The notes under the pieces were generated by a model. It did not search any database, had not been told where the DNA came from, and saw nothing but the letters and a program-made list of their open reading frames with translations. Below, piece after piece: positions 25,698-49,390 of a stretch of DNA of 50,942 bases. Each line of letters starts with the position of its first letter. The stretch's first letter is position 1. Source of the stretch: a virus (taxonomy: Duplodnaviria > Heunggongvirae > Uroviricota > Caudoviricetes); the IMG/VR virus record IMGVR_UViG_2695420814_000010. The stretch is one strand, 5' to 3'. The position numbers and the translations under genes are program-made.

Positions 25698-26285
25698 TTT
25701 TCCTCACATATGTCATATAGTAAAGGATTATATATACCGTTGTTTTGGACGCTCAAACAGCGAATCAGATCAAATAAAACGCACATTTGTTAACATTTAC
25801 ACAAAGTCTGCGTGGGATATTCTGAAAGAATATCCATAATGTGGAGAGAATCTATTGAAGTGCATGGTGCCGGGTGCCTCCCGGTGAACAAAATGTTCGT
25901 GATACCTGTCGGCGACAGAAAAGGTTAATGGTATCACCCCACCGCACAGGGGGATTCACCATGCAGGAGTTTTCTTAGCAAACTCACTGCGCGCCCGGCA
26001 ACTCCCAACCACATAAAATGCGGAGTTTGTGGCATTTATGCATATAACTCGCAGGAATTATCTTAAAAAACTGATGTCGATCCGGATTAAAAAGAAGCAG
26101 GTCATCATCAGATGACTGGAAAAAAGGAAAACAAAAAATACTCATCATACAGTTTTGATTGCAGGGATGAGCCTGCTATGCACAATATGCAGAATATAAG
26201 CAAGATAAAAATATGCAGGCATATTATTTCGGATCTTGTTATTAACACAACCTTTTTAATAATCATTTGGCATACAATAAACCAG

Positions 26286-26741: not shown

Positions 26742-27284
26742 TCAAGCCATTTTCTCAGCAAATGATTCACGCATGGGAATATATAGGGCATACTCAGCAA
26801 CAGCTAACCAATTAGCAATCCGTTTTTCGCATGTGCTAAAACACCACTCTGGGTGTGCATCATTTAGCAATTCAGCCATTTTGCGCTTAGTCATCCCCCG
26901 CCCTTCATAGCGTTGCCGGAGAATGCAAATCAATCCTGGATGCTCTGCCAGCACCTCACTTATGACTCGATCAATACATAACGCCTCTGCATCAGTACAA
27001 TGCGCCAGCCAGCTCTTTTGCTTGCCGTTGATCATCTCTCGCAAAAACGCTTCCAGCTCAGCTTTCTCTATTCCCGCTTTTTTCATTCTGCGCAGGGCTT
27101 CATTAATGGCTGTTTTCGTCAGTTTTTTGGATGCCAACAACTGATTGAACATATTCCCTGACCTGCCACCGCCAATATACGACCAGCGCCCCCACATACG
27201 TAGTTTTCCCTGAATCCAGACACTTTCCAGCGTGGTGAGGCGAAGGTGTTCTCCGCTTTTTCCTGTATTCGTTGGGTAAATCAT
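26742..27284 (-). CDS. Putative late-gene antiterminator Q
   Basis: 180-aa ORF in the Q position: last gene of the nin region, immediately upstream of the tR'-like terminator and late genes; start overlaps the ybcO-like stop (ATGA). Confidence 0.5.
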   Translation of the reverse strand: MIYPTNTGKSGEHLRLTTLESVWIQGKLRMWGRWSYIGGGRSGNMFNQLLASKKLTKTAINEALRRMKKAGIEKAELEAFLREMINGKQKSWLAHCTDAEALCIDRVISEVLAEHPGLICILRQRYEGRGMTKRKMAELLNDAHPEWCFSTCEKRIANWLAVAEYALYIPMRESFAEKMA

Positions 27285-27571
27285 AAATGACCTTTCTTTC
27301 TCCAGATTTCTTGTGTGCGAAAAACCCCTTCAGCATGCATCAGGCGCAATTCTTCTTTGGTGTAATCGCTGGTTTTTACCCGCCCGTCGATTAGATCGTG
27401 GCATGAGCTACAGGCTATCGCCGCCTGCATATCATGTGGTTTTGTCGCTGTTCCGCACGTCCCCGCCAGCCTGTAATGCGCCAGCACAGAGGTTTCGGGA
27501 TTGTGATTGCAGTAGCCAGGGATTCTGATCTGGCACATCTGGCCTTTAGCCGCTTTACGTAAATTCACCAT
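27281..27571 (-). CDS. YbcO-like zinc-binding putative nuclease (DUF1364-like)
   Basis: 96-aa ORF LRKAAKGQMCQIRIPGYCNHNPETSVLAHYRLAG.CGT.TKP...IACSSCHDLIDGR, same length and Cys pattern as DLP12 YbcO (recalled). Confidence 0.7.
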   Translation of the reverse strand: MVNLRKAAKGQMCQIRIPGYCNHNPETSVLAHYRLAGTCGTATKPHDMQAAIACSSCHDLIDGRVKTSDYTKEELRLMHAEGVFRTQEIWRKKGHL

Positions 27572-28170
27572 TACGCAAACTCCAGTAGTTGTGCGGCCAC
27601 ATTTTCAACTTCCTCCTGAGAGGAGAATTTACGGAACAGAATCCAGTTCCACAGCACATTCAGTACAGATTTATAAACCTGCTGAAACTCGACTTCGTCC
27701 ATATTCGCAAAAGCGATGGATTTTGCCCGACGCCCACGGCTACCGTCCGGATAAATATGCTCGGTGTAAAATCCGGCCTGAATGGTTACCCACTCGCGGA
27801 AAGCCTCAAACGACTTTAGCAACGCCGTATCCCGGGTTCTACGAGTCGCAACGGTGTTAAGGTATTGCTCTGCGGCATCACTCAGGGCTGGCGTGTGTTC
27901 CCGACCAACTGATTCGCACAGGTAATCAACGAAACCAGACAGCAGTTCTCGTTCGCGAGGCGTGATCGCCCCACCGACCGGAGTCCAGTAATCGAATCCC
28001 AGTTGCAGGAGTTTGAAAAAACGCTTGTGGAATGCGTAGTTACGCACACGCTTAAAGTCTGCGTGTATCCACTCACCTATTTTGATTTGATGCAGAAAAT
28101 CGCAACTCTCCGGCGTCGCCGGGAGAAGTAAACCAGAAGAGGTTTGTTTGACCAGTTGTATATGCGCCAT
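27571..28170 (-). CDS. Conserved nin-region phage protein (DUF1367-like, tentative)
   Basis: 199-aa ORF starting MAHIQLVKQTSSGLLLPATPESCDF; an IS-truncated paralogous copy lies at 34869..35184. Confidence 0.5.
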   Translation of the reverse strand: MAHIQLVKQTSSGLLLPATPESCDFLHQIKIGEWIHADFKRVRNYAFHKRFFKLLQLGFDYWTPVGGAITPRERELLSGFVDYLCESVGREHTPALSDAAEQYLNTVATRRTRDTALLKSFEAFREWVTIQAGFYTEHIYPDGSRGRRAKSIAFANMDEVEFQQVYKSVLNVLWNWILFRKFSSQEEVENVAAQLLEFA

Positions 28171-28450
28171 TTCTCAATCTCTCGATGGCGCAGCGCAGCA
28201 GATGCCAGTTGTTCAGGCTGACGAATAAAGTATAAATAAACTGGCTATGGTGTAAAGCCCCACATAGCATGAACAAACACTACATATCAAATAGCTGGTA
28301 CAAGGATAGAAATACGACACTTATTATTAAAAACGATTAGATAAATTACATTTTAATGTTATGCAAAAGTTCTTTTTTATCATAACATTTCAATAAAAGC
28401 ATTACAGATGCAATCATCCCGTCATCATCAATTATTTAAGGTGGTTAAAC

Positions 28451-28537
28451 ATGGAAAATAACAAGTTCGCACATCTCGCTCCTTTTTTATCCGTAATCCT
28501 TTTCGCTTGTTGTTTTATATGGGCATTATTTTTATAA
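28451..28537 (+). CDS. Candidate small hydrophobic peptide (28 aa)
   Basis: AAGGTGG Shine-Dalgarno 7 nt before ATG; MENNKFAHLAPFLSVILFACCFIWALFL has one predicted TM segment. Not in the ORF track (under 60 aa). Confidence 0.25.
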   Translation: MENNKFAHLAPFLSVILFACCFIWALFL

Positions 28538-28943
28538 AGTAGCCACATGATAAGTTGCTGGAATCATATTTCCCACTCAAGTCATTAACATTTGATAAGA
28601 TATATCTAAAAGGACGCCTTTACATTATTTATGCGTATATAATTTATTTATATACACAGTAAAGGTATCCTGGGAAAATATTTATCGTTAAAAAATACAT
28701 CATAAATAATTAAGCTGAAATTTCAGAACACAACTAATACACACAATAAGGTTCAGTAACAGTAATCTATGTGGACTACATCGAGATTTTTTGATTAAAC
28801 TTTAATAACTTATTCCTAACACACAGAATGCATAAACTAAAAGTAAAACAAATAGTTATACGAAAAACAACCATATTTATTCTATCTTCTCCTCTAATCA
28901 ACATATCAATTATGTGTTTCATAACAGCTTGACATAACCCTCC

Positions 28944-28970
28944 AAAAGATGCATTTTTAATGCATGTTTT
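28944..28970 (+). promoter_or_regulatory. NsrR-type inverted-repeat operator in the yeaR-like promoter region
   Basis: AAAAGATGCATT-ttt-AATGCATGTTTT between a TTGACA -35 hexamer (28929..28934) and the GGAGGAGG Shine-Dalgarno; resembles the recalled NsrR consensus AAGATGCATTT-N-AAATGCATCTT. Confidence 0.4.
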
Positions 28971-28983
28971 GGAGGAGGTGGTT

Positions 28984-29322
28984 ATGACACACAAGAGAAT
29001 TCCTAAAGATTGGGTAATCAAACGCTCAACTCCGTTCTTCACAAAAGAGAACGTACCTTCAGCGTTATTAACACATCATAATACAGCAGCAGGTGTTTTT
29101 GGGCAGTTGTGCGTAATGGAAGGCACTGTAACATATTATGGTTTTACTGATGAGAATGCTACTGAACCGGAGATAAAAGTAGTCATTAATGCTGGCGCTT
29201 TTGCAACAAGCCCACCACAATACTGGCACCGTGTTGAACTAAGCGATGATGCTCAGTTTAATATTAACTTTTGGGTCGCTCCAGACTTTTCGGGCGAAAA
29301 AGTCTATAGCACCAAAAAATAG
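28984..29322 (+). CDS. YeaR-like DUF1971 (TehB N-terminal-domain-like cupin) protein
   Basis: Start MTHKRIPKDW after GGAGGAGG; KRSTPFFTKENVPSALL...GTVTYYGF.DE..EPE...INAGAFATSPPQYWHRVE..DDAQFNINFWVAP follows the recalled E. coli YeaR pattern. Confidence 0.65.
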   Translation: MTHKRIPKDWVIKRSTPFFTKENVPSALLTHHNTAAGVFGQLCVMEGTVTYYGFTDENATEPEIKVVINAGAFATSPPQYWHRVELSDDAQFNINFWVAPDFSGEKVYSTKK

Positions 29323-29942
29323 ATGATCATATTAAAAATGCTTTAACAGTCAGACCCGGCAGGGCTATCCCCGACGGGTCTCATTTTTGTAAATATATTG
29401 GTTCTACATTGACAGGAGACTTCAACCATAAGAAGTAATCTGAATACTTGAGCAATAAATTTACTTAAGATTAATGAGCGCACCTTGCCGGACAAAGATA
29501 AACCAAGGTAACACCTTTTTTCTAGCCAGTATGTAATCAATCAGAAAGCCGCTCCATAAGAACAACAGCAAGACAATAAATTGCCATTACAGCCGCAATA
29601 GCCAGCGCACATTTGAGAACCAGCACGACAACCCCCTGTATTAGACGCACACCAGTCCTGATAAATATGAGGCTGTCTCGTCAGTGATTCAATACAACTA
29701 TTGGGTATAGTTTCTGTGATTTTATTCTGTAGAAATGGAACACAACAACCAGTCACCACCAGCACTTCCTTAAATGCTCTAAGTCAGAAACAAGCCAACA
29801 TTTTAGTCCGCTTTGAGCGATCTGCAGACATTGCTAGCAGCCTTCTGTGTGAATTCTCAGGGAGCAGGTCGGCATAGCATCACGTTGAGGCTCTTACCCT
29901 ACTTGTTCACACCAACCCTAACTCCACAGACTGATTCATAAA

Positions 29943-30944
29943 TTAGTAATCTGCGTGTTTCGCACTTTTCAGAAATGCTTTCATATTTTCATTAGGTCGC
30001 TCAATTTCGAAGTTACTTCCATATAACTCTTGTAATTTTGGCCATAACTTACTTAATAACCCTCTCCTGCGATAAAATGGATGTATCCAAACGGTAGATA
30101 GGTACGGAGAATTTGCATTTGAATTGTTTATTGTGACCAGCCCAACTAAACATTGTCGATAACCACTATTATCCATTGATTGTATTTCTTCGACGAATGG
30201 ATACGCGATTACATCAGTCCAACCATGATCGGTTGTATCCCATTGCATTCCGTCATGACATTCCTTCGACTGATAGCGGCGTAAAGCTACACACGCGAGC
30301 TTTTGCCAATCTGGAGAATTAATTGTGATCTCTTCATCGTATGACGCGCCTATTGGAGCGGGTATTGGTCTGATTAATCCAGCATGGCATTCATCATAGA
30401 ACTTCATGTTTCCCTCAGAAACGTTGTGTACGTTGGGTTGCTCCATGTGTGCGCCATTCAAAAATAGCTCTGATAGTAGTGTATCTACACTGTAATCTTT
30501 ATTGATTATTGTCGGCTTAGAGTTTTTCTTATTAAGGCCGCGAGTAACGATTTTTTGATCAATGTTAACAACATGGAATAATCCGTCGGGGAGGCTAGCG
30601 AACCACGATGGGGCATCGGACCAGAATAGCATGCCTTTTGTACTTCTTAAGAGTTTAATTAAGTTAATACAAGCTTCTTCACTAGTCTTGCCGTTGATGC
30701 GAAGTATGTTAGGACTAAAGTAATATTCATCCATATCAGGGAATGCAGCTTCGCAAAACTCCTGTACATAATTTAGCACCTGGATTCTACAGAGATCATC
30801 ATAGCTGGTAATAACTAAGGGGGTATCTTCATTACTATTATGATTATCAATAATGCAATCTATAGCGAGACTTACTGCTTTGCGTATCACTTCAGTTGAA
30901 TCTAACGACTCTAAAAATTTTGTCTTTCGTGTGCGAATATCCAT
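29943..30944 (-). CDS. Hypothetical protein, gene 2 of a two-gene cassette; C-terminal GNAT-acetyltransferase-like motif
   Basis: 333-aa ORF 15 nt downstream of gene 1; C-terminal STVWIHPFYRRRGLLSKLWPKLQELYG resembles GNAT motif A; N-terminal ~230 aa has no recognisable motif. AT-rich codon usage. Confidence 0.55.
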   Translation of the reverse strand: MDIRTRKTKFLESLDSTEVIRKAVSLAIDCIIDNHNSNEDTPLVITSYDDLCRIQVLNYVQEFCEAAFPDMDEYYFSPNILRINGKTSEEACINLIKLLRSTKGMLFWSDAPSWFASLPDGLFHVVNIDQKIVTRGLNKKNSKPTIINKDYSVDTLLSELFLNGAHMEQPNVHNVSEGNMKFYDECHAGLIRPIPAPIGASYDEEITINSPDWQKLACVALRRYQSKECHDGMQWDTTDHGWTDVIAYPFVEEIQSMDNSGYRQCLVGLVTINNSNANSPYLSTVWIHPFYRRRGLLSKLWPKLQELYGSNFEIERPNENMKAFLKSAKHADY

Positions 30945-30959
30945 GTATGACCTGCGCTA

Positions 30960-31922
30960 TTAAAATTCATGAATGAACGGTTTGTCATCTGGTTGCAAAA
31001 TGGTGGTTTTATTCGTTGCTACATTTAAACTGTTGTAGAGCATAATTGCCAGGTTCGATGCATTTTCAATCAGCGTTTCAAGATCCTGGTCTGTAATCAC
31101 TACGAGGTTCCCTTCTTTATCCTTTCCACCACGATGCACTAAGTGATTTCGATTGAGGGTTGCCAATTCAATAGCTTCTATCGGACAGTCTTTTTGTACT
31201 TTTATATCGAATGTAGCTTCATAGCGGTCGATTACCTTTTTAGTGCTATGCCAGCTTGCACTGATCAAGTGTTCCTTGATTGACCTGATTAGCTCTCCCC
31301 TAATTTTCTCGATGGGTTCACCCTTGAAAGGCAACGCAGCAATATCTTTGCTTACTTTAAATTCAGTCTTACCTTTTTCTATACAATTGGCTATGTAGAC
31401 ATCATCTTTCTCTATAGAATTAATGAATAGCTCAACATAAAGCGTTTCCAAAGCTGTAATAACATTCGTGTAGAGCAAACTAAGCAAGTGGTTTTTTTGC
31501 TGTTGTTCAGTTTTATCTTTTGCAAGTTTTTTTATTTTATCGATATTATCAATGAATTTTAAATACGGATTACCGGAAGACGTTACAGCGTCGTAGATAT
31601 CATCATCGTACCAATCATCTATATTATTTGAGTTTCCAGACCAGTCAAAACATTGTGTTTGTAATTCATCTACTAATTCCTCAATATACTCAGATTTAAC
31701 ATATTGACCGAAGATGGATTGTAGTTCTTCGCTCGCATCATACGGCCCGCCATATATGTAAGCATAGCCACCTTCTCTACTTTCATACGGACAAGCATTT
31801 GCCGGATCTTCAAAGTTTTCAAAGAACCAGTTTTTCATTACTTCGAGTTGATCTTTTTTGCTTATGTATTTTAAAGATTTTAGTGGAACTTTCTTTCCAT
31901 TAACCTCGAAAACAATTTTCAC
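30960..31922 (-). CDS. Hypothetical protein, gene 1 of a two-gene cassette; possible HEPN-like R-x4-H motif
   Basis: Track ORF 30960..32051; preferred start is GTG at 31922 (MKIVFEVNGKK...) after AAGGGAG and downstream of an extended -10 promoter. C-terminal NRNHLVHRGG fits R-N-x3-H. About 320 aa, AT-rich. Confidence 0.55.
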   Translation of the reverse strand: MKIVFEVNGKKVPLKSLKYISKKDQLEVMKNWFFENFEDPANACPYESREGGYAYIYGGPYDASEELQSIFGQYVKSEYIEELVDELQTQCFDWSGNSNNIDDWYDDDIYDAVTSSGNPYLKFIDNIDKIKKLAKDKTEQQQKNHLLSLLYTNVITALETLYVELFINSIEKDDVYIANCIEKGKTEFKVSKDIAALPFKGEPIEKIRGELIRSIKEHLISASWHSTKKVIDRYEATFDIKVQKDCPIEAIELATLNRNHLVHRGGKDKEGNLVVITDQDLETLIENASNLAIMLYNSLNVATNKTTILQPDDKPFIHEF

Positions 31923-31955
31923 GATGTAACGCTCCCTTGTATCAATTGCGCAACT

Positions 31956-31964
31956 ATTATACCA
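31956..31964 (-). promoter_or_regulatory. Extended -10 promoter element (TGGTATAAT) upstream of the two-gene cassette
   Basis: Minus strand TGgTATAAT, about 30 nt upstream of the GTG start; a TTGACA hexamer lies further upstream near 32076..32081. Confidence 0.4.
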
Positions 31965-32120
31965 CAGCGAAATACAGGGCATAACCTGCCTCCTTAAACT
32001 AACATACCATGAGCCAGCAATGTCCGCTATTGGCACAAAGCGGACAACCACGCTAGCTCTCCCCTGTGCCAGAAAAATGTCAATTTACATATGAACTAAT
32101 GCTCTTTGATCTAGTAACGT

Positions 32121-32552
32121 CTATAAATACCGAAGATTTCCTTGATAAAATGCCAGTACACGTTTCATAACTTCACTCTTCCGGCACTCGCGACAGATTA
32201 TGTTCTGACGCCTGTCATAGCGGCGTATTTCTCCGTCTGGTAATGACCAGATAAGGTCAGGATCAACCACAACCGTTTTTTTCACCTTTGCCCTGGATAG
32301 TTTTTTGCGGGCGTTTTTCCAATCCTTACGAGCCTGTTCAGACGGGAATAACCCATAGCCAGAGTTGTATACATCGCCACTGGCAACCAACTCTCTGGCA
32401 AGAATGCTCATCAGATATCTTGTCGCACCTGTCTTGGCCTCCAGTTGCCTTAACGTCTCGCGCCCACTCTGGCGTACCAACTCAACAACCTGCTCCTTAA
32501 TTTTTTCACGCTCTTCCTGTGTAAAAACTTTTGCCATAAGCGCCTCCGGCAA
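32121..32552 (-). CDS. Conserved phage protein with N-terminal winged-helix-like region and CxxC motif
   Basis: 143-aa ORF; close paralogue of 37391..37813 (shared GDVYNSGYGLFPSEQARKDW...DPDLIWSLPDGEIRRYDRR.NIICRECRKSE). Confidence 0.45.
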   Translation of the reverse strand: MPEALMAKVFTQEEREKIKEQVVELVRQSGRETLRQLEAKTGATRYLMSILARELVASGDVYNSGYGLFPSEQARKDWKNARKKLSRAKVKKTVVVDPDLIWSLPDGEIRRYDRRQNIICRECRKSEVMKRVLAFYQGNLRYL

Positions 32553-33314
32553 TCACTTTTCCGACACAATACGACTGGAGGAATCGACAATCTGTCGGAC
32601 AATATCCCGGTGCTTGTTCAGCTCCCGCAGCGCGGCGCAGACTCGCTCCCACTTCTGGACATGATTTTTCGCCCGACGCAGTTCGCGGTTTGCCATATGC
32701 AGCGATGGTAAAACTAGGTCATCCGCTTGCGTTTCAGTAAACGATGGCAGCGACTGCACAATGTCCGCCACAGTTTCTGTTTTAATATCTTCCTGTGTTG
32801 CCGCTTCCTGTACTGGTAACGCAACACCGGCTGGCTGAGGAAAGGCTTTACCATCAGTTTCCGCTACCGATGCAGCTTTCGGCTCTGCTGGTAAATTATC
32901 GCCCGGCATGCAGTAACGAAATTTACTGTTCTGGTTTACGCGAATCAGGCGTCCTTTGCTGATTGCCATTGCCAGCGTTGAAGCAACTTTGCGGGATGTT
33001 GTACCGAACAGCGTAGCCAGTTCATCCGCCGTTTGTGGTCCGCGTTGTTCAATCGTCGCGGTTAAATCGCACTCTGAGATTTTCACTACAGTTGCCGTGG
33101 TGGTTTCTTCCGGCAGTTCTGCCTGCATTGGCTGTTCCTGCTGAACGTTGTTATCAGCCACACGCCAGGTGTACGCGCTTTTATCAACGAAACCAGCTTT
33201 TTTCAGTTCCCATAGTTCGTTCAGCACTTCTTCACGACTGATATCAAGTCGCGCAGCAAGTTCTATGGATGTGGCTTTTCCCATTGCTTTCAGTGCGTCA
33301 AAAACAGTCTCCAT
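32553..33314 (-). CDS. Winged-helix DNA-binding phage protein (DUF1627-like, tentative)
   Basis: Track ORF 32553..33365; likely start [43 protein letters not shown] (HTH) at 33314. Confidence 0.45.
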
Positions 33315-33336
33315 AAAAATTTCCTCCCGGTAAAAA

Positions 33337-33738
33337 TTACTTCTCAATTCCTGGCTGGACGACATTCGGACGCCAGCTCTCCCAGTTAAAATTCACCCAT
33401 CGCCCGCCGTTCATGGTCATGCGATCCATAATCCGCTCGCCGAGCAATGTTTTCATGGCCTCATAGTTCAGGTTTGTCAGCATCCCCACGCTGCGCATCG
33501 ACGCTGTCCGGCGATCAACAATCTGGTGCAGCACCACCTGCTCGTTTTTCGTCTCGCGCTGAATGCCAATTTCATCAAGAACCAGCAGATCCACTTCGCA
33601 TAGTTCCCGCAAAAATTTTTCGCCTGACTGCCCATCGTCATAGCTGGCGTGCAGGGCACTCATAACATCAGCCACGGTAACCACAATCACTGTCTGACCG
33701 TCTTTCAGCAGGCGATTCCCGATAGCTGCCGCTAAGTG
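33337..33738 (-). pseudogene. ydaV: DnaC-like replication protein YdaV, C-terminal fragment ending at an N-marked junction
   Basis: Encodes ...VVTVADVMSALHASYDDGQ...[12 protein letters not shown]; 33483..33738 matches 40549..40803 as far as compared by eye; sequence breaks at n (33739) into IS-internal sequence. Confidence 0.5.
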
Positions 33739-33739
33739 N

Positions 33740-34867
33740 TGAAAATCAACTTTCGATCAGTGAAGGCGCTTCCCGATTATCTCTTCCTGAAGGCACTTTA
33801 GGACAATGGGTTACCGCCGCCAGAAAAGGGCTCGGTACTCCTGGTTCCCGCACGGTGGCTGAACTGGAATCTGAAATTCTGCAACTGCGTAAGGCGTTAA
33901 ATGAAGCTCGCCTTGAGCGAGATATATTAAAAAAAGCAACAGCGTATTTTGCACAGGAGTCGCTGAAAAATACGCGTTAATCGAACAATGGCGACAACAA
34001 TTTCCCATTGAAGCGATGTGTCAGGTATTTGGTGTATCCAGGAGCGGTTATTACAACTGGGTACAGCATGAACCCTCAGACAGAAAACAAAGTGATGAGC
34101 GGCTAAAACTGGAGATTAAGGTGGCACATATCCGCACTCGCGAAACATATGGAACCCGGCGGCTCCAGACGGAGCTGGCAGAGAATGGCATCATCGTTGG
34201 TCGTGACCGACTGGCACGTCTTCGTAAGGAGCTAAGGCTACGCTGTAAGCAGAAACGCAAGTTCAGAGCGACTACGAACTCGAACCACAATCTGCCAGTT
34301 GCGCCAAATCTGCTGAACCAGACGTTCGCTCCTACAGCACCAAATCAGGTCTGGGTGGCGGACCTGACGTATGTTGCCACACAGGAGGGATGGTTGTACC
34401 TCGCTGGCATCAAAGATGTTTATACGTGCGAAATTGTCGGCTACGCCATGGGAGAGCGCATGACAAAAGAGCTGACAGGTAAAGCCCTGTTTATGGCGCT
34501 CAGGAGCCAGCGCCCACCTGCCGGGCTAATCCACCACTCTGATCGAGGTTCACAGTACTGCGCATACGATTACCGGGTCATACAGGAGCAGTCTGGTCTG
34601 AAAACATCAATGTCGCGTAAAGGTAACTGTTACGACAACGCTCCGATGGAAAGCTTCTGGGGAACGCTGAAAAATGAGAGCCTGAGCCACTATCGTTTTA
34701 ATAACCGGGATGAAGCCATCTCAGTAATACGGGAATACATTGAGATTTTCTACAATCGTCAGCGTCGTCACTCTCGTCTGGGGAATATCTCCCCGGCAGC
34801 CTTCAGGGAAAAATATCATCAGATGGCTGCTTAAAAAAAGAACAAATGGTAGTGTCCGCTATTGCCA
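33740..34867 (+). mobile_element. IS3-family (IS600-like) element, copy 1, lacking about 125 bp of the left end
   Basis: Matches 39384..40511 of the complete copy; begins inside orfA immediately after an n; right end ...GTGTCCGCTATTGCCA at 34867. Confidence 0.8.
34016..34834 (+). CDS. IS3-family transposase OrfB (DDE integrase domain), copy 1
   Basis: 272-aa ORF identical to 39660..40478; DDE-type catalytic region (WVADLTYV...HHSDRGSQY...NAPMESFW). Confidence 0.85.
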   Translation: MCQVFGVSRSGYYNWVQHEPSDRKQSDERLKLEIKVAHIRTRETYGTRRLQTELAENGIIVGRDRLARLRKELRLRCKQKRKFRATTNSNHNLPVAPNLLNQTFAPTAPNQVWVADLTYVATQEGWLYLAGIKDVYTCEIVGYAMGERMTKELTGKALFMALRSQRPPAGLIHHSDRGSQYCAYDYRVIQEQSGLKTSMSRKGNCYDNAPMESFWGTLKNESLSHYRFNNRDEAISVIREYIEIFYNRQRRHSRLGNISPAAFREKYHQMAA

Positions 34868-34868
34868 G

Positions 34869-35184
34869 TACACCTCAATTGCTCTGCGGCTTCGCTCAGA
34901 GCTGGCGTATGTTCCCGGCCTACTGATTCACACAGGTAATCAACGAAACCGGACACCAGTTTTCGTTCGCGAGGCGTGATCGCCCCACCGACCGGAGTCC
35001 AGTAATCGAAACCCAGTTGCAGGAGTTTGAAAAAACGCTTGTGGAATGCGTAGTTACACACACGCTTAAAGTCTGCGTGTATCCACTCACCTATTTTGAT
35101 TTGATGCAGAAAATCGCAACTCTCCGGCGTCGCCGGGAGAAGTAATCCGGAAGAGGTTTGTTTGACCAGTTGTATATGTGCCAT
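34869..35184 (-). pseudogene. IS-truncated paralogue of the nin-region gene 27571..28170
   Basis: Starts MAHIQLVKQTSSGLLLPATPESCDF at 35184, about 95% identical to 27860..28170, and runs into the IS right end at 34868. Confidence 0.6.
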
Positions 35185-35222
35185 CGGCTTTCTCCGGTGG
35201 CACGGTGTTACACAGCAGGAGT

Positions 35223-35510
35223 TCAATCCTGCTCAAGATTGTAGATGAGTTTATTCTTCAGCAAAAGCAGAAAACCAGCCTTAAAACCAATCTCTTTCAA
35301 AACCCGTAATGATGTGACAAATTCGTCCTCACGCAAAATAAAACCGTCCGTCAGAAGTCCATTACAAAAATAAAATAACACAGCACCGCTCTTCCTTTGT
35401 TGAGATTGCAAACATCTAATGCGGCAATGGCTGACAATCGCTCCATTCTCAACGCGCACAGCATAGAGGCCATTTTCACTAAAAATTTCACGCAATTCTT
35501 CGATTTTCAT
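35223..35510 (-). CDS. Hypothetical small protein
   Basis: 95-aa ORF between the hok locus and the truncated nin gene; no recognisable motif. Confidence 0.3.
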   Translation of the reverse strand: MKIEELREIFSENGLYAVRVENGAIVSHCRIRCLQSQQRKSGAVLFYFCNGLLTDGFILREDEFVTSLRVLKEIGFKAGFLLLLKNKLIYNLEQD

Positions 35511-35635
35511 CTTCAGAATCCTTCCAGATAAATAGCTCTCCCCTGTTCGGGGTCCATCCCTCTTCTCCCTGCGCGCTACTTAAGTGAGTCGATTCTATCT
35601 GCGAAGGTGCGCGAATCAAATTCACCGGAAATAAA

Positions 35636-35684
35636 CAACAAAAAACCCGCCGAAACGCTGAGAGATCACAGCGATGGGCGGGTT
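35636..35684 (-). terminator. Structured 3' end / terminator of hok mRNA
   Basis: Minus strand CCCGCC...GGCGGG stem with inner CGCTG/CAGCG stem, followed by TTTTTTGTTG. Confidence 0.4.
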
Positions 35685-35759
35685 AAGTGCGGGTGCGTTG
35701 AGGATGCCTGACACATCAGAGGTGGGCGGGGATGGGATCAGCTCCCCGCCCGGTCACTC

Positions 35760-35915
35760 TTACTTCCTGGATTCGTAGTCTACGAAGACAGCGACCTCCG
35801 TCTGGCCGGTTCGGATTCGTACCTCACAGAGGTCTTTCCTCGTTACCAGTGCCGTCACTATGACGGTTAAACAGATGACGATCAGGGCGATTAACATCGC
35901 CTTTTGCTGCTTCAT
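35760..35915 (-). CDS. hok: Hok/Gef family type I toxin
   Basis: MKQQKAMLIALIVICLTVIVTALVTRKDLCEVRIRTGQTEVAVFVDYESRK (51 aa) after AAGGAG; an in-frame upstream extension (to 35972) may correspond to a mok-like leader. Confidence 0.8.
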   Translation of the reverse strand: MKQQKAMLIALIVICLTVIVTALVTRKDLCEVRIRTGQTEVAVFVDYESRK

Positions 35916-36142
35916 AGCCTGCTTCTCCTTGCCTTTCGGCATGTAAGAGGCTAACCTACATGTGCAAAGCATGAAATTGGCCTCAGATTAATGTTAAGCG
36001 TCTTGCCGGACGCGTAATGTTAACTGGGGCTTTTCTCTATCTGCCTTTTGGTGTTCATGCCTGAAGCAGATAGCCTCAAGCACCCGCAGTCATTCTACTT
36101 ACCTCGCCAATATGAAATCAATCAGAAAGGTGCCCCATAAAA

Positions 36143-36829
36143 TCACTCCTTCTCTTCTTTACCGTAGTGGAGTTGACCAATTTTGATAAGAGGGCGTCCC
36201 TGAGATTTGCGGTGTAGATTGGTATCGCGCAGAGAATACACACAGCCACAATATTCCTGCTGATAGAATTTTTCGCGCTTGCTGATTTCAATCATACGGG
36301 ACGAGCCGCCCTGCTTGCGCCAGTTATAATCCCAGTACACCATGCCCGGATAATGCGCGACGGCTCGCCGCCCACAGTCGTTAACCTGCTGCATATTTTT
36401 CCAGCGTGAAATGCCCAGTGAACTGCTGATCACACTGAAACCATTTTCAGCGGCGTACAGCGCTGTCCGCTCAAAACGCATGTCAAAACACATGGTGCAA
36501 CGGATCCCTCGTTCGGGCTCCCATTCCATTCCTTTGGCTCGTTCAAACCAGTTGTCTGTGTCGTAATCAGCATCAATAAACGGCACGCCGTGTTGTTCAG
36601 CAAAGCGAATATTCTCATCCTTACGAATTAAATACTCTTTCTGAGGATGAATGTTCGGGTTGTAGAAAAAGATGGTGTAGTCGATTCCCGAGGCCTGAAG
36701 CGCCTCCATCACCTCACCGGAACATGGAGCACAGCAAGAGTGCAGTAGTAGTTTGTTTGCCCCGTTTGGGAGCTCCAATTTGGGCCGTTTGAAATCAGCA
36801 ACTGTCATAAATATGTTTATTGGGGTCAT
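36143..36829 (-). CDS. DUF208 / QueH-like protein (epoxyqueuosine reductase family, tentative)
   Basis: 228-aa ORF with [11 protein letters not shown] near the N-terminus, FFYNPNIHP, and C-terminal QEYCGC, motifs recalled from the QueH family. Confidence 0.5.
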
Positions 36830-36976
36830 AAAAATATCAAAGAGTGTAGCATTAGAACGGGGCTATCGGAAACAGATGTGTGACTGCTCCCCGCCCTTTC
36901 GGGTGGTCTCCTGATGATTTGAGGGTGCAGAAATCCCTCCGGTTAAGGATTAAATTTTTAACAGTGCTAAATTTAA

Positions 36977-37333
36977 TTATTCAGTTCTGGATTTTGTCGC
37001 CCTGCGTATCCGCGCTTTCGCGTTACGCTCAATCTGTATCAGCTTTTCTATATTTCTCCGCCTTTCCTGTTCCTCCTGGCGCAATAGCCTTACATCATCT
37101 GCCAGTCTGGTTTCTCTTTTTGCCACAGAGAGCATCCAGTCAAACGGCTCCACAACCGCACCGCAGATTTTACAGCGGACCTGACGCTCTTTTTCGTCAA
37201 CCCGTACAGAGGCGTGATGGCAATATGGTCTTTCCGATGGCTCATAAAGAAAATTAACCTGATTACGAGGGTCATCCTCTTTTACCGGAAATAAAACGAT
37301 ATTGCTTAACTCATCTTCTGGTTTTATTTCCAT
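36977..37333 (-). CDS. Hypothetical protein with Cys-His cluster
   Basis: Track ORF 36977..37390; likely start MEIKPEDELSN at 37333; motif CHHASV...CKICGAV. Confidence 0.35.
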   Translation of the reverse strand: MEIKPEDELSNIVLFPVKEDDPRNQVNFLYEPSERPYCHHASVRVDEKERQVRCKICGAVVEPFDWMLSVAKRETRLADDVRLLRQEEQERRRNIEKLIQIERNAKARIRRATKSRTE

Positions 37334-37390
37334 GCTCCTCTCCTTTGATGCGAATGCCAGCGGTAATTGAAGCCTGATAGCTAATTTCAT

Positions 37391-37813
37391 TCACAGTATC
37401 GCCTCCTGAAAATTACCCTGATAGAAAGCCAGTACACGCTGCATAGCTTCGCTCTTCCGGCACTCGCGACAGATTATATTCAGGCGCCTGTCGTAGCGGC
37501 GTATTTCTCCGTCAGGTAATGACCAGATAAGGTCCGGATCAACAACAACCGGTTTCCTCACCTTTACTCTCGAGAGTTTTTTGCGGGCGCTTTGCCAGTC
37601 CTTGCGAGCCTGTTCAGACGGGAATAAGCCGTAGCCAGAATTATATACATCACCACTTGCGACCAGTTCTATGCATAAGCGACCGACAGACGCACGACTG
37701 ATACCTGTTTCATCTGACAACTGCCGAATCGTGACCCGACCGTCCTGATGCACGAGTTCCACAATTCGCGTCTTCAGTTCTTCCCGCTGTTCGGGAGTAA
37801 AAGGTTTCGCCAT
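37391..37813 (-). CDS. Conserved phage protein, paralogue of 32121..32552
   Basis: 140-aa ORF sharing the GDVYNSGYGLFPSEQARKDW and IICRECRKSE segments. Confidence 0.45.
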   Translation of the reverse strand: MAKPFTPEQREELKTRIVELVHQDGRVTIRQLSDETGISRASVGRLCIELVASGDVYNSGYGLFPSEQARKDWQSARKKLSRVKVRKPVVVDPDLIWSLPDGEIRRYDRRLNIICRECRKSEAMQRVLAFYQGNFQEAIL

Positions 37814-37827
37814 AAATCCTCCTGAAA

Positions 37828-38574
37828 CTACTTAACAACCCTCGAATGGCTAACATTCGGACGCCAGCTCTCCCAGTTAAAATTCACCCAGCGCCCGCCG
37901 TTCATGACCATGCGATCCATCACCCGCTCGCCGAGCAATGTTTTCATCACCTCATAGTTCAGGTTTGTCAGCATCCCCACGCTGCGCATCGACGCTGTCC
38001 GGCGATCAACAATCTGGTGCAGCACCACCTGCTCGTTTTTCGTCTCGCGCTGAATGCCAATTTCATCAAGAACCAGCAGATCCACTTCGCACAGCTCCCG
38101 CAAAAATTTTTCGCCTGACTGCCCGTCGTCATAGCTGGCGTGCAGGGCGCTCATAACATCAGCCACGGTAACCACAATCACTGTCTGACCGTCTTTCAGC
38201 AGGCGATTCCCGATAGCTGCCGCTAAGTGATTCTTCCCGGTACCAGGTTTTCCGCTGAACGCAAAATTTGTACACCCGGTCATCAGTTCATCGGCGATGG
38301 ATTTCGCCTGGCTTAACGCGTATCGCTGGCCGTCGTTCTGCACCTGGTAATTCGCAAACGAGCATTTACGGTGCAACGGCTGGATGCCTGAGCGATTCAG
38401 AATTTTTTCCACCCGCAACTGGCGATTCAGGCGGTTGATCTCCTCGCTACGTTTCTGGCCTTCAGCAAGTTGCCACTCGCGCCACTCCGCTACCGTTCTG
38501 AATGGGGCGGTTACATGTGGCGGGGTCAGTCGGCGGATGCGTTCCAGAACGCCGCCTGTCGCAATATTTTTCAT
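37828..38574 (-). CDS. DnaC-like replication protein (IstB-like AAA+ ATPase), YdaV-like, second copy
   Basis: 248-aa ORF with Walker A GKPGTGKNHLAAAIG and Walker B LLVLDEIG. Confidence 0.8.
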   Translation of the reverse strand: MKNIATGGVLERIRRLTPPHVTAPFRTVAEWREWQLAEGQKRSEEINRLNRQLRVEKILNRSGIQPLHRKCSFANYQVQNDGQRYALSQAKSIADELMTGCTNFAFSGKPGTGKNHLAAAIGNRLLKDGQTVIVVTVADVMSALHASYDDGQSGEKFLRELCEVDLLVLDEIGIQRETKNEQVVLHQIVDRRTASMRSVGMLTNLNYEVMKTLLGERVMDRMVMNGGRWVNFNWESWRPNVSHSRVVK

Positions 38575-38580
38575 GGTCCG

Positions 38581-39258
38581 TTACCCCCTGAAGCCTGGCG
38601 GGATCGCACTGTCCGGCAACGAGACGGTGTTAACCTGTCGGAGCAACGTCTCAGGCCGAACACCTTTCGGCGCGAACAGGCCCTGGTATTCATTGGCGAT
38701 GCTGTGTCGAATCACCTGCTCAGGTGTAAAACCCTGCTGACGGAATTTTTCCAGTTCCCGTATCGCCCCGTTAGCGCCCTGCTCCGTTCGAATCGGTTTT
38801 CGCAATGCCTGTCTGAACCGGACCCACTCATGCCAGAGTGTTTCCGGCAACCAATCGGGCAGCTCAATAGCCTCCGGCTCGAATTTTTTAGACGCTCGTT
38901 TTTGGCGAGGGGGAGATCAGTATTTAGATCTTCCTCTTCCTCTTCCTCTGGTAACGCTTTTTGATCCGTTTGTGTAACGCTGGCAGCGTTACCTTTTCGT
39001 TTCAGTTCGCGTATTTTTGTTACTCGCTCGTTTGTAACCGCCCGTTTTTTTTAGAGCTTTTTCCGTTATGACGTTCAAAGTTAGGTAGAGAAAGCCCTCC
39101 GTCATTTTCGACCAGCCATCCAACCTGAATTAACGCATCAGCAAAACCAGACATAAAAGTGATGCGATCTATTGCACTTTTTGTAACGCCGCGAGCGTTA
39201 CAATCTGCATTACCGTCTATCATTTGTTGATCCGCCCATGCCCAGAAGCGAATAACCT
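38581..39258 (-). pseudogene. Disrupted replication initiator / replisome organiser (YdaU-like C-terminus), abutting an IS end
   Basis: 38581..38850 encodes the same C-terminal domain as 41154..41420 (...WVRFRQALRKPIRTEQGANGAIRELEKFRQQGF...); the upstream part (to 39250) is in another frame and the locus ends at the IS left end (39259). Confidence 0.45.
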
Positions 39259-39321
39259 GAGGTAGCCTGAGTTTAACGGACACTCCTTCCTGAAATAGAA
39301 TGGCATCAGAAGGAGCTAATA

Positions 39322-39624
39322 ATGAGCAGAAAAACCCAACGTTACTCTAAAGAGTTCAAAGCCGAAGCTGTCAGAACGGTTCCTGAAAATCAACTTTCGA
39401 TCAGTGAAGGCGCTTCCCGATTATCTCTTCCTGAAGGCACTTTAGGACAATGGGTTACCGCCGCCAGAAAAGGGCTCGGTACTCCTGGTTCCCGCACGGT
39501 GGCTGAACTGGAATCTGAAATTCTGCAACTGCGTAAGGCGTTAAATGAAGCTCGCCTTGAGCGAGATATATTAAAAAAAGCAACAGCGTATTTTGCACAG
39601 GAGTCGCTGAAAAATACGCGTTAA
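39322..39624 (+). CDS. IS3-family transposase OrfA (HTH)
   Basis: 100-aa ORF; A7G slippery run at 39573..39580 allows a -1 shift into orfB to give the OrfAB fusion. Confidence 0.85.
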   Translation: MSRKTQRYSKEFKAEAVRTVPENQLSISEGASRLSLPEGTLGQWVTAARKGLGTPGSRTVAELESEILQLRKALNEARLERDILKKATAYFAQESLKNTR

Positions 39625-39659
39625 TCGAACAATGGCGACAACAATTTCCCATTGAAGCG

Positions 39660-40478
39660 ATGTGTCAGGTATTTGGTGTATCCAGGAGCGGTTATTACAA
39701 CTGGGTACAGCATGAACCCTCAGACAGAAAACAAAGTGATGAGCGGCTAAAACTGGAGATTAAGGTGGCACATATCCGCACTCGCGAAACATATGGAACC
39801 CGGCGGCTCCAGACGGAGCTGGCAGAGAATGGCATCATCGTTGGTCGTGACCGACTGGCACGTCTTCGTAAGGAGCTAAGGCTACGCTGTAAGCAGAAAC
39901 GCAAGTTCAGAGCGACTACGAACTCGAACCACAATCTGCCAGTTGCGCCAAATCTGCTGAACCAGACGTTCGCTCCTACAGCACCAAATCAGGTCTGGGT
40001 GGCGGACCTGACGTATGTTGCCACACAGGAGGGATGGTTGTACCTCGCTGGCATCAAAGATGTTTATACGTGCGAAATTGTCGGCTACGCCATGGGAGAG
40101 CGCATGACAAAAGAGCTGACAGGTAAAGCCCTGTTTATGGCGCTCAGGAGCCAGCGCCCACCTGCCGGGCTAATCCACCACTCTGATCGAGGTTCACAGT
40201 ACTGCGCATACGATTACCGGGTCATACAGGAGCAGTCTGGTCTGAAAACATCAATGTCGCGTAAAGGTAACTGTTACGACAACGCTCCGATGGAAAGCTT
40301 CTGGGGAACGCTGAAAAATGAGAGCCTGAGCCACTATCGTTTTAATAACCGGGATGAAGCCATCTCAGTAATACGGGAATACATTGAGATTTTCTACAAT
40401 CGTCAGCGTCGTCACTCTCGTCTGGGGAATATCTCCCCGGCAGCCTTCAGGGAAAAATATCATCAGATGGCTGCTTAA
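39660..40478 (+). CDS. IS3-family transposase OrfB
   Basis: 272-aa DDE-domain ORF; the -1 frame is open from the slippery site at about 39575. Confidence 0.85.
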   Translation: MCQVFGVSRSGYYNWVQHEPSDRKQSDERLKLEIKVAHIRTRETYGTRRLQTELAENGIIVGRDRLARLRKELRLRCKQKRKFRATTNSNHNLPVAPNLLNQTFAPTAPNQVWVADLTYVATQEGWLYLAGIKDVYTCEIVGYAMGERMTKELTGKALFMALRSQRPPAGLIHHSDRGSQYCAYDYRVIQEQSGLKTSMSRKGNCYDNAPMESFWGTLKNESLSHYRFNNRDEAISVIREYIEIFYNRQRRHSRLGNISPAAFREKYHQMAA

Positions 40479-40511
40479 AAAAAGAACAAATGGTAGTGTC
40501 CGCTATTGCCA

Positions 40512-49201: not shown

Positions 49202-49390
49202 ATGTATAAAATTACCGCCACTATTGAAAAGGAAGGTGGCACTCCTACTAACTGGACAAGATATTCAAAATCTAAACTAACGAAATCAGAATGCGAAAAA
49301 ATGCTCTCAGGTAAAAAAGAAGCAGGCGTTTCCAGAGAGCAGAAAGTAAAACTGATAAATTTTAATTGCGAGAAACTTCAGTCCTCGTGA
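49202..49390 (+). CDS. ydaC: YdaC-like small protein
   Basis: MYKITATIEKEGGTPTNWTRYSKSKLTKSECEKMLSGKKEAGVSREQKVKLINFNCEKLQSS (62 aa), internal start of track ORF 49130..49390. Confidence 0.5.
   Translation: MYKITATIEKEGGTPTNWTRYSKSKLTKSECEKMLSGKKEAGVSREQKVKLINFNCEKLQSS

Follow-up and report, generated by a model that had tools for sequence, protein, structure and literature searches.

The locus considered here raises the question of whether two adjoining minus-strand genes in an AT-rich island of a phage genome are ordinary phage genes or an anti-phage cassette. It lies within a 50,942-nucleotide stretch of DNA from a Caudoviricetes virus (IMG/VR record IMGVR_UViG_2695420814_000010), hereafter called the window. 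A first-pass annotation, made from the letters of the DNA, had proposed a candidate defence cassette with its own promoter. Judged by its sequence, the two-gene insert, which sits in a Rac-like Escherichia coli prophage, is the published anti-phage system DS-33, described in the DefensePredictor study (Science 2026, PMC13092281). The defence finding is already in the literature and is not new. What may be new are the P289L difference in the published B protein, the hairpin-containing ends of the cassette, and the occurrence of the same repeats around other cargo at the same site.

Identity with DS-33 and expression of the gene pair

The open reading frames (ORFs) of the window place gene A at 30960..31922 (minus strand, 320 aa, GTG start) and gene B at 29943..30944 (minus strand, 333 aa), the latter beginning 15 nt past the TAA stop of gene A, which agrees with the coordinates and spacing given by the first-pass annotation. 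Gene A (WP_014639476.1) is identical in 320 of 320 residues to the DS-33A protein printed in Table S8 of the published study, and gene B (WP_000354966.1), a DS-33B-type protein, is identical in 332 of 333, the sole difference being a proline at position 289 in the window and a leucine in the published protein. Gene order and the 15-nt spacing are also alike in the two. In Table S6, WP_014639476.1 and WP_000354965.1 together constitute DS-33, with the working name 'GNAT', and are marked defensive; the strain is named MG1655 pCV1-GNAT (PMC13092281). The proposal of an anti-phage cassette was thus borne out, given that DS-33, with an identical A and a near-identical B, defends experimentally (PMC13092281); neither protein had been recognised there as part of a named defence system, but the pair had already been named.

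When expressed from its native upstream DNA, DS-33 lowers the plating of T7, T3, Bas67 and Bas26 by 2-6 logs (PMC13092281). The underlying values in Table S7 are given as -log10 efficiency of plating for two replicates and five phages, and for the wild-type system these are 3.8/2.6 for T7, 3.3/2.4 for T3, 4.0/2.0 for Bas67, 5.0/5.9 for Bas26 and 0.8/0.1 for T5 (PMC13092281). The delta-GNAT construct gave 4.8/4.3 for T7, 3.3/3.3 for T3, 4.0/3.3 for Bas67, 5.0/4.9 for Bas26 and 1.7/0.5 for T5, while the delta-HEPN construct and the R258A mutant gave values of -0.5 to 0.5 and -0.3 to 0.8, respectively, across all five phages (PMC13092281). Since defence is lost in delta-HEPN and R258A and kept in delta-GNAT, it depends on the HEPN gene and on the arginine of its R-x4-H motif but not on the GNAT gene. 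The R258A result (PMC13092281) also supplies the mutation of that arginine which the first-pass annotation had suggested making. DS-33 is absent from the main-text discussion of the study, and no mechanism or genomic-context analysis of it was published (PMC13092281).

Expression of the cassette from its own extended -10 element forms part of an explanation that we consider highly probable as a whole. The element TGGTATAAT lies at 31964..31956 on the minus strand (TGgTATAAT, 31956..31964), followed by the ribosome-binding site AAGGGAG at 31938..31932, which 9 nt separate from the GTG at 31922..31920. All three are kept in an alignment of 14 diverged cassettes, with TGgTAcAAT and AAGGAGG as the forms seen in most relatives and in relatives, respectively. 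The motif TGNTATAAT occurs in the window at chance frequency (2 found against 1.93 expected), and a strict two-hexamer sigma-70 scan did not call the site, because its -35 is poor. The published constructs were functional with 200 bp or less of native upstream DNA in the low-copy plasmid pCV1, which has no promoter upstream of the insert (PMC13092281). The promoter, ribosome-binding site and GTG start proposed at first pass are therefore present and conserved, and native upstream DNA sufficed for function in pCV1.

The open frame of gene A reaches 32051, upstream of the GTG. An alternative start at ATG 31982, which has an AGGAGG site and would give the 340-aa form found in PHROGs and P0001, was rejected because this ATG and its ribosome-binding site are missing in loci L103, L106 and L107 and because homologues begin at the GTG-equivalent position; those from other genera begin MKIVF... 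or MNIVF..., matching the GTG start. In identical DNA, the NCBI annotation calls gene A as the same 963-nt gene, under the accession WP_014639476.1. The ribosome-binding site of gene B is weak, and its translation may depend on that of gene A.

Gene A as effector and gene B as a probable accessory protein

Gene A begins with a HEPN/RES N-terminal domain 1 (approximately aa 20-95), which a helical linker joins to a HEPN domain of the RiboL-PSP type at the C-terminus, and shows an all-alpha HEPN fold. The R-x4-H motif, R258-N-H-L-V-H263, is encoded at 31134..31151 (minus strand) and is invariant in 42 homologues; the HEPN-like character read from this motif at first pass is upheld. We infer the ribonuclease activity of gene A, and the basis shown for it is the genetic requirement for R258. 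The published study reports remote homology of DS-33A to PD-T4-2_B, a RiboL-PSP-HEPN protein, with an HHblits probability of 96.1 over 55% of A (PMC13092281, Table S8). Among other resources, PHROGs places the proteins only in the unnamed families phrog_17908 and phrog_16994; PADLOC 2.0 had no credible match for gene A or gene B, an NCBIfam search of both proteins yielded nothing useful, and profiles of A and B against PDB sequences gave chance matches only.

Gene B consists of an alpha/beta N-terminal domain private to its family (aa 1 to approximately 190) and a C-terminal GNAT fold, consistent with the GNAT motif-A-like segment noticed at first pass. With the Pfam model PF00583 it reaches 19.9 bits, where the threshold is 20.7. 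The most conserved GNAT segment is the beta4-alpha3 'motif A' region, STVWIHPFYRRRGLLSKL, encoded at 30042..30095 (minus strand) and including P289. The motif reads R-R-R-G-L-L against the expected Q/R-x-x-G-x-G/A, with leucine at the last position; R292 is invariant and G293 is not. Codon 289 lies at 30078..30080, and proline is found in 43 of 43 aligned homologues having a residue there. The P289 allele is present on at least 1000 contigs and the published L289 allele (WP_000354965.1) on 31. The published experiment may thus have used a weakened B, in which case the apparent dispensability of the GNAT protein may rest on a weakened allele, and this co-travelling protein may have a role that the allele has hidden.

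The two genes differ in their distribution. The cassette is carried at at least 99% identity by 205 of 5426 complete E. coli genomes (approximately 4%), including the extraintestinal pathogenic strains S88, IHE3034 and APEC O1, and in E. coli it is found in Rac-like and Qin/DicB-like prophages, always directly after a DUF977 gene. The gene A family spans Enterobacterales, Aeromonas, Acidobacteriota, Dehalococcoidia, cyanobacteria and others. It stands alone in 78 of 80 species-level loci, B being nearby only in two near-identical copies, and these 78 loci showed no recurrent neighbour. Three solo A loci, 61-75% identical to gene A by tblastn, lie in defence-type settings (L012 4338..6945; L013 111..2509; L014 4524..6915). 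The solo A of Yersinia alsatica belongs to a P2-like prophage, where gpA (the replication gene A) and the portal gene lie on either side and an ApeA-like HEPN protein adjoins it; the homologue of a Pantoea genome adjoins an AbiJ-NTD3 protein, and a further one adjoins an integrase. Among B homologues of at least 73% identity, A precedes B in 26 of 27 informative loci with a gap of 15-18 nt, while those of at most 56% identity are never preceded by A and occur alone or beside an AAA_13 ATPase, a HigBA pair or a HerA-like fragment. B accompanies A only within one enterobacterial/Aeromonas subclade. In other genera, A-B pairs sit amid ordinary chromosomal genes (LacI, LysR, ROK, aldo/keto reductase), which shows that the pairing does not depend on a prophage setting; a function of B as a self-immunity factor needed in prophage contexts only was not supported, on the same grounds. 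In INPHARED, no copy of the cassette was found in phage DNA, and two weak protein relatives of A were present in gut phage contigs.

Altogether, these observations very probably describe a self-contained copy of DS-33, carried as cargo after DUF977 in a Rac-like prophage, with A as the effector and B as an accessory protein that proved dispensable against the phages of the published assays; functionally, it would be a one-gene effector with an accessory. In the best-supported reading of the mechanism, A would act on its own as a HEPN effector, silent before infection and degrading RNA thereafter, as HepS and Tha do in other prophages. In this scheme, gene A would be kept inactive in uninfected cells, and infection by T7/T3-like and certain BASEL phages would activate it, probably through its N-terminal or linker part. 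Active A would then cut RNA (tRNA, rRNA or mRNA), halting translation and phage production, and gene B may tune or attenuate A or have a separate role. Here we infer the trigger, the auto-inhibition, and whether immunity would be abortive or direct.

Several points weigh against this explanation. At the level of domain models, gene A of the window scores 22.2 bits with PF18870 against a gathering threshold of 27.4 (E 1.9e-4, aa 26-92), and had no match to PF18735 at E <= 0.1. For their part, all 42 homologues match PF18870 at E <= 0.01, many with precomputed PF18870 matches, and 18 of the 42 match PF18735 at E <= 0.01, the best at 1e-9. Additionally, the dispensability of the GNAT protein was observed in two replicates and five phages with the minority P289L allele of B, and the tight linkage of A and B in 26 of 27 informative loci, which persists to a B identity of approximately 78%, suggests that B is not irrelevant.

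This linkage, in a tight operon with a gap of 15-18 nt, also speaks for a toxin-antitoxin-like pair, in which the GNAT protein would restrain the nuclease until infection relieved the restraint, with acetylation of the nuclease or of its substrate as one conceivable means; the models for such an arrangement are MntA, which AMPylates HepT, and Ith, which inhibits Tha. The deletion series fits this idea to some extent. Defence was not lost in delta-GNAT, and T5, T3 and Bas67 values rose in some replicates. A mild attenuating role of B on A is possible because the deletion raised T7 defence by 1.0 and 1.7 logs, an effect that is small and uneven across phages. The rise is also inconsistent, as the Bas26 value fell in one replicate, a change in expression could explain it, and the B allele tested was P289L. 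Construction of the delta-GNAT strain succeeded and its plating was normal, which shows that A is not lethal in the absence of B; in 78 of 80 loci A has neither B nor another recurrent partner, and B lacks A in every homologue of at most 56% identity. We hold the toxin-antitoxin-like reading to be unlikely.

The independent distribution of A and B suggests another arrangement, in which two functions are stacked: A would be a stand-alone defence, and B a separate defence or counter-counter-defence whose target phages lie outside the follow-up panel. The solo B homologues beside an AAA_13 ATPase, a HigBA pair or a HerA-like fragment are in keeping with this, as are the frequent stacking of systems at mobile cargo sites and the weakly positive DefensePredictor score of B, 1.08 (PMC13092281). 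Set against these points, B without A (delta-HEPN) gave no protection against T7, T5, T3, Bas67 or Bas26, B has no PADLOC match, and it has a weak ribosome-binding site and may depend on the translation of A. Stacking of this kind seems improbable to us.

Cassette ends and the cargo site after DUF977

The whole DS-33 cassette spans 29806..32045 (minus strand) and comprises both terminal inverted repeats, the promoter region, A, B and a 3' region. The upstream repeat, GTCCGCTTTGTGCCAATAGCGGACATTGCT, lies at 32016..32045 (minus strand) and contains a hairpin GTCCGC-N12-GCGGAC, and the downstream repeat, GTCCGCTTTGAGCGATCTGCAGACATTGCT as read on the plus strand, lies at 29806..29835. By direct count, the upstream repeat and the reverse complement of the downstream end are identical at 24 of 30 positions, and each begins GTCCGC-N12-GCGGAC. 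Conservation among diverged copies of DS-33 starts and stops at the two hairpins. It includes a non-coding 3' region at 29836..29942 (minus strand), which is conserved in the alignment of diverged copies and carries an extra insertion of approximately 50 nt in some relatives. The AT-rich island described at first pass is also evident, with a G+C content (GC) of 0.35-0.42 over 29750..31999; the flanking stretches 27000..28249 and 32000..33500 have approximately 0.47-0.51.

The same ends, with the same outer flanks (gtggtt ... tagaag), bound different cargo in other prophages. The cargo is a 269-aa ORF of unknown family in L143 (ends 10691/11699), an FRG-domain protein matching the PADLOC candidate PDC-S15 at E 7e-99 in L140 (ends 8671/10472), and a segment of approximately 1 kb with small ORFs only in L228 (ends 4800/5776). 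In L227 and L229 (ends 4800/8473), it is a BCCT transporter with a DUF2254 protein, flanked by two upstream-type hairpins. A hairpin is also found approximately 120 nt upstream of solo B homologues, and at L121 1219 and L122 4881. More broadly, the hairpin pattern occurs in 91 IMG/VR contig stretches, beside many unrelated sequences, and the junction of backbone and hairpin occurs in 1690 of 5426 complete E. coli genomes (approximately 31%), at 1-4 places per genome. A genome-wide repeat resembling repetitive extragenic palindromic elements was considered for the hairpins and ruled out, because the junction occurs at just 1-4 places per genome. No target-site duplication was seen at the cassette ends, no empty site with joined flanks was found in complete E. 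coli genomes, and Rfam gave nothing above noise inside the cassette.

These features led us to a tentative proposal, which as a whole we regard as possible and rather doubtful. DS-33 might belong to a hitherto undescribed family of self-contained cargo cassettes, whose conserved ends are hairpin-containing terminal inverted repeats of approximately 30-65 nt (GTCCGC-N12-GCGGAC-ATTGCT...). Such cassettes would be swapped at the fixed post-DUF977 site of Rac/Qin-type prophages and could insert at chromosomal positions in other genera as well. The ends might then be recognised by an activity, either recombination or transposition, through which defence genes are moved, and the GNAT protein might be a dedicated HEPN attenuator whose effect was under-estimated through P289L. 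A hairpin-ended structure of this kind could explain the movement of the genes between prophages and chromosomes.

The view that the two genes are ordinary lambdoid replication or nin backbone genes with no defence role, to which their shared orientation and their position between replication-region and nin-like genes might point, can practically be dismissed, being refuted by the published phenotype (PMC13092281) and by a gene distribution in which the pair is present in just 205 of the 5426 complete E. coli genomes, other cargo occupies the same site in other prophages, and the same pair lies between chromosomal housekeeping-type genes in other genera.

The post-DUF977 site is a defence hotspot even without the cassette ends. 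In a Qin-like prophage of E. coli M719 (L135 663..1562), a SMEK-domain protein and a methyltransferase follow DUF977 without hairpins, and the SMEK-domain protein matches a PADLOC Aga model at E 1e-20. SMEK is also the domain found in the published system DS-27 (PMC13092281). With alternative cargo after DUF977 in other prophages, the variable cargo hotspot suggested at first pass was supported. The defence call made there from sequence was likewise correct, and it concerns a working anti-phage system present in approximately 4% of complete E. coli genomes.

In the window, the cassette has ydaU/ydaV-like, DUF1627 and DUF977 genes on one side and the nin-like genes DUF1367 and DUF1364 on the other, all in the same orientation. 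A second backbone copy contains DUF977 at 37391..37813, followed by a 137-aa zinc-ribbon ORF, QueH at 36143..36829 and hok/sok. The paralogous backbone with queH-like and hok cargo noted at first pass was accordingly recovered, including an Rfam sok match at 35910..36085. This second piece, which also carries ydaV-like sequence, is bracketed by two direct copies of an IS3-family insertion sequence (window 33740..40500). The rve-domain ORFs of the copies lie at 34016..34834 and 39660..40478, and the 300-nt repeats at 33740 and 39384 are 100% identical. A ydaV-like sequence occurs three times in the window (33485, 37976 and 40549). Besides sok, the Rfam matches above gathering score are RalA (49208..49386), the antitoxin small RNA of the Rac RalR/RalA system, and STnc100 (25808..25994).

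Two further features lie close to the cassette. Outside it, a very AT-rich stretch at 28171..29322 has a GC of 0.29 at 28250..28999 and contains, on the plus strand, a DUF1971 gene (28960..29322) similar to the N-terminal portion of TehB; lying between the cassette and DUF1367, this stretch has the look of a separate cargo. Just beyond the downstream cassette end and upstream of hokD, a cysteine-rich ORF at 29541..29765 (minus strand) is open in several prophages, with counterparts at L228 5735..6064 and L140 10470..10760, and may be no more than a piece of the leader of the hok region.

Comparison with known systems

Gene B has its GNAT fold in common with the type II toxins TacT, AtaT, KacT and ItaT. 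GNAT toxins of type II toxin-antitoxin systems are approximately 170 aa long and paired with RHH/DUF1778 antitoxins, whereas gene B has 333 aa, a private N-terminal domain and no RHH neighbour. When present alone in the delta-HEPN construct, B was neither toxic nor protective, and the strain grew and plated normally (PMC13092281).

With respect to gene A, the type VII toxin-antitoxin pair HepT/MntA has a nucleotidyltransferase as the partner of its HEPN protein, where the partner in DS-33 has a GNAT fold instead. Gene A, at 320 aa, also has an extra N-terminal domain, and loss of its partner is tolerated. HepS, from the Gifsy-1 prophage, and Tha, from Staphylococcus aureus prophages, are prophage-encoded defences with a single HEPN protein and resemble gene A at the level of the fold only. 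They differ from it in size and N-terminal domain, and their triggers are siphovirus tail proteins, while DS-33 acts on T7 and T3, which are podoviruses, and on BASEL phages.

PD-T4-2 consists of a DUF262 protein and a RiboL-PSP-HEPN protein (Vassallo et al. 2022). The PADLOC models for this system gave no match at E <= 0.1. The HEPN domain of gene A is remotely homologous to its PD-T4-2_B protein, with PF18735 as the shared subfamily in 18 of 42 relatives of A. PD-T4-2 differs in that gene A has no DUF262 partner, its neighbours being DUF977 and the GNAT gene, and carries a HEPN/RES-NTD1 N-terminus instead. The two systems also differ in the phages on which they act, these being T7, T3 and the Bas phages for DS-33 and T4 for PD-T4-2.

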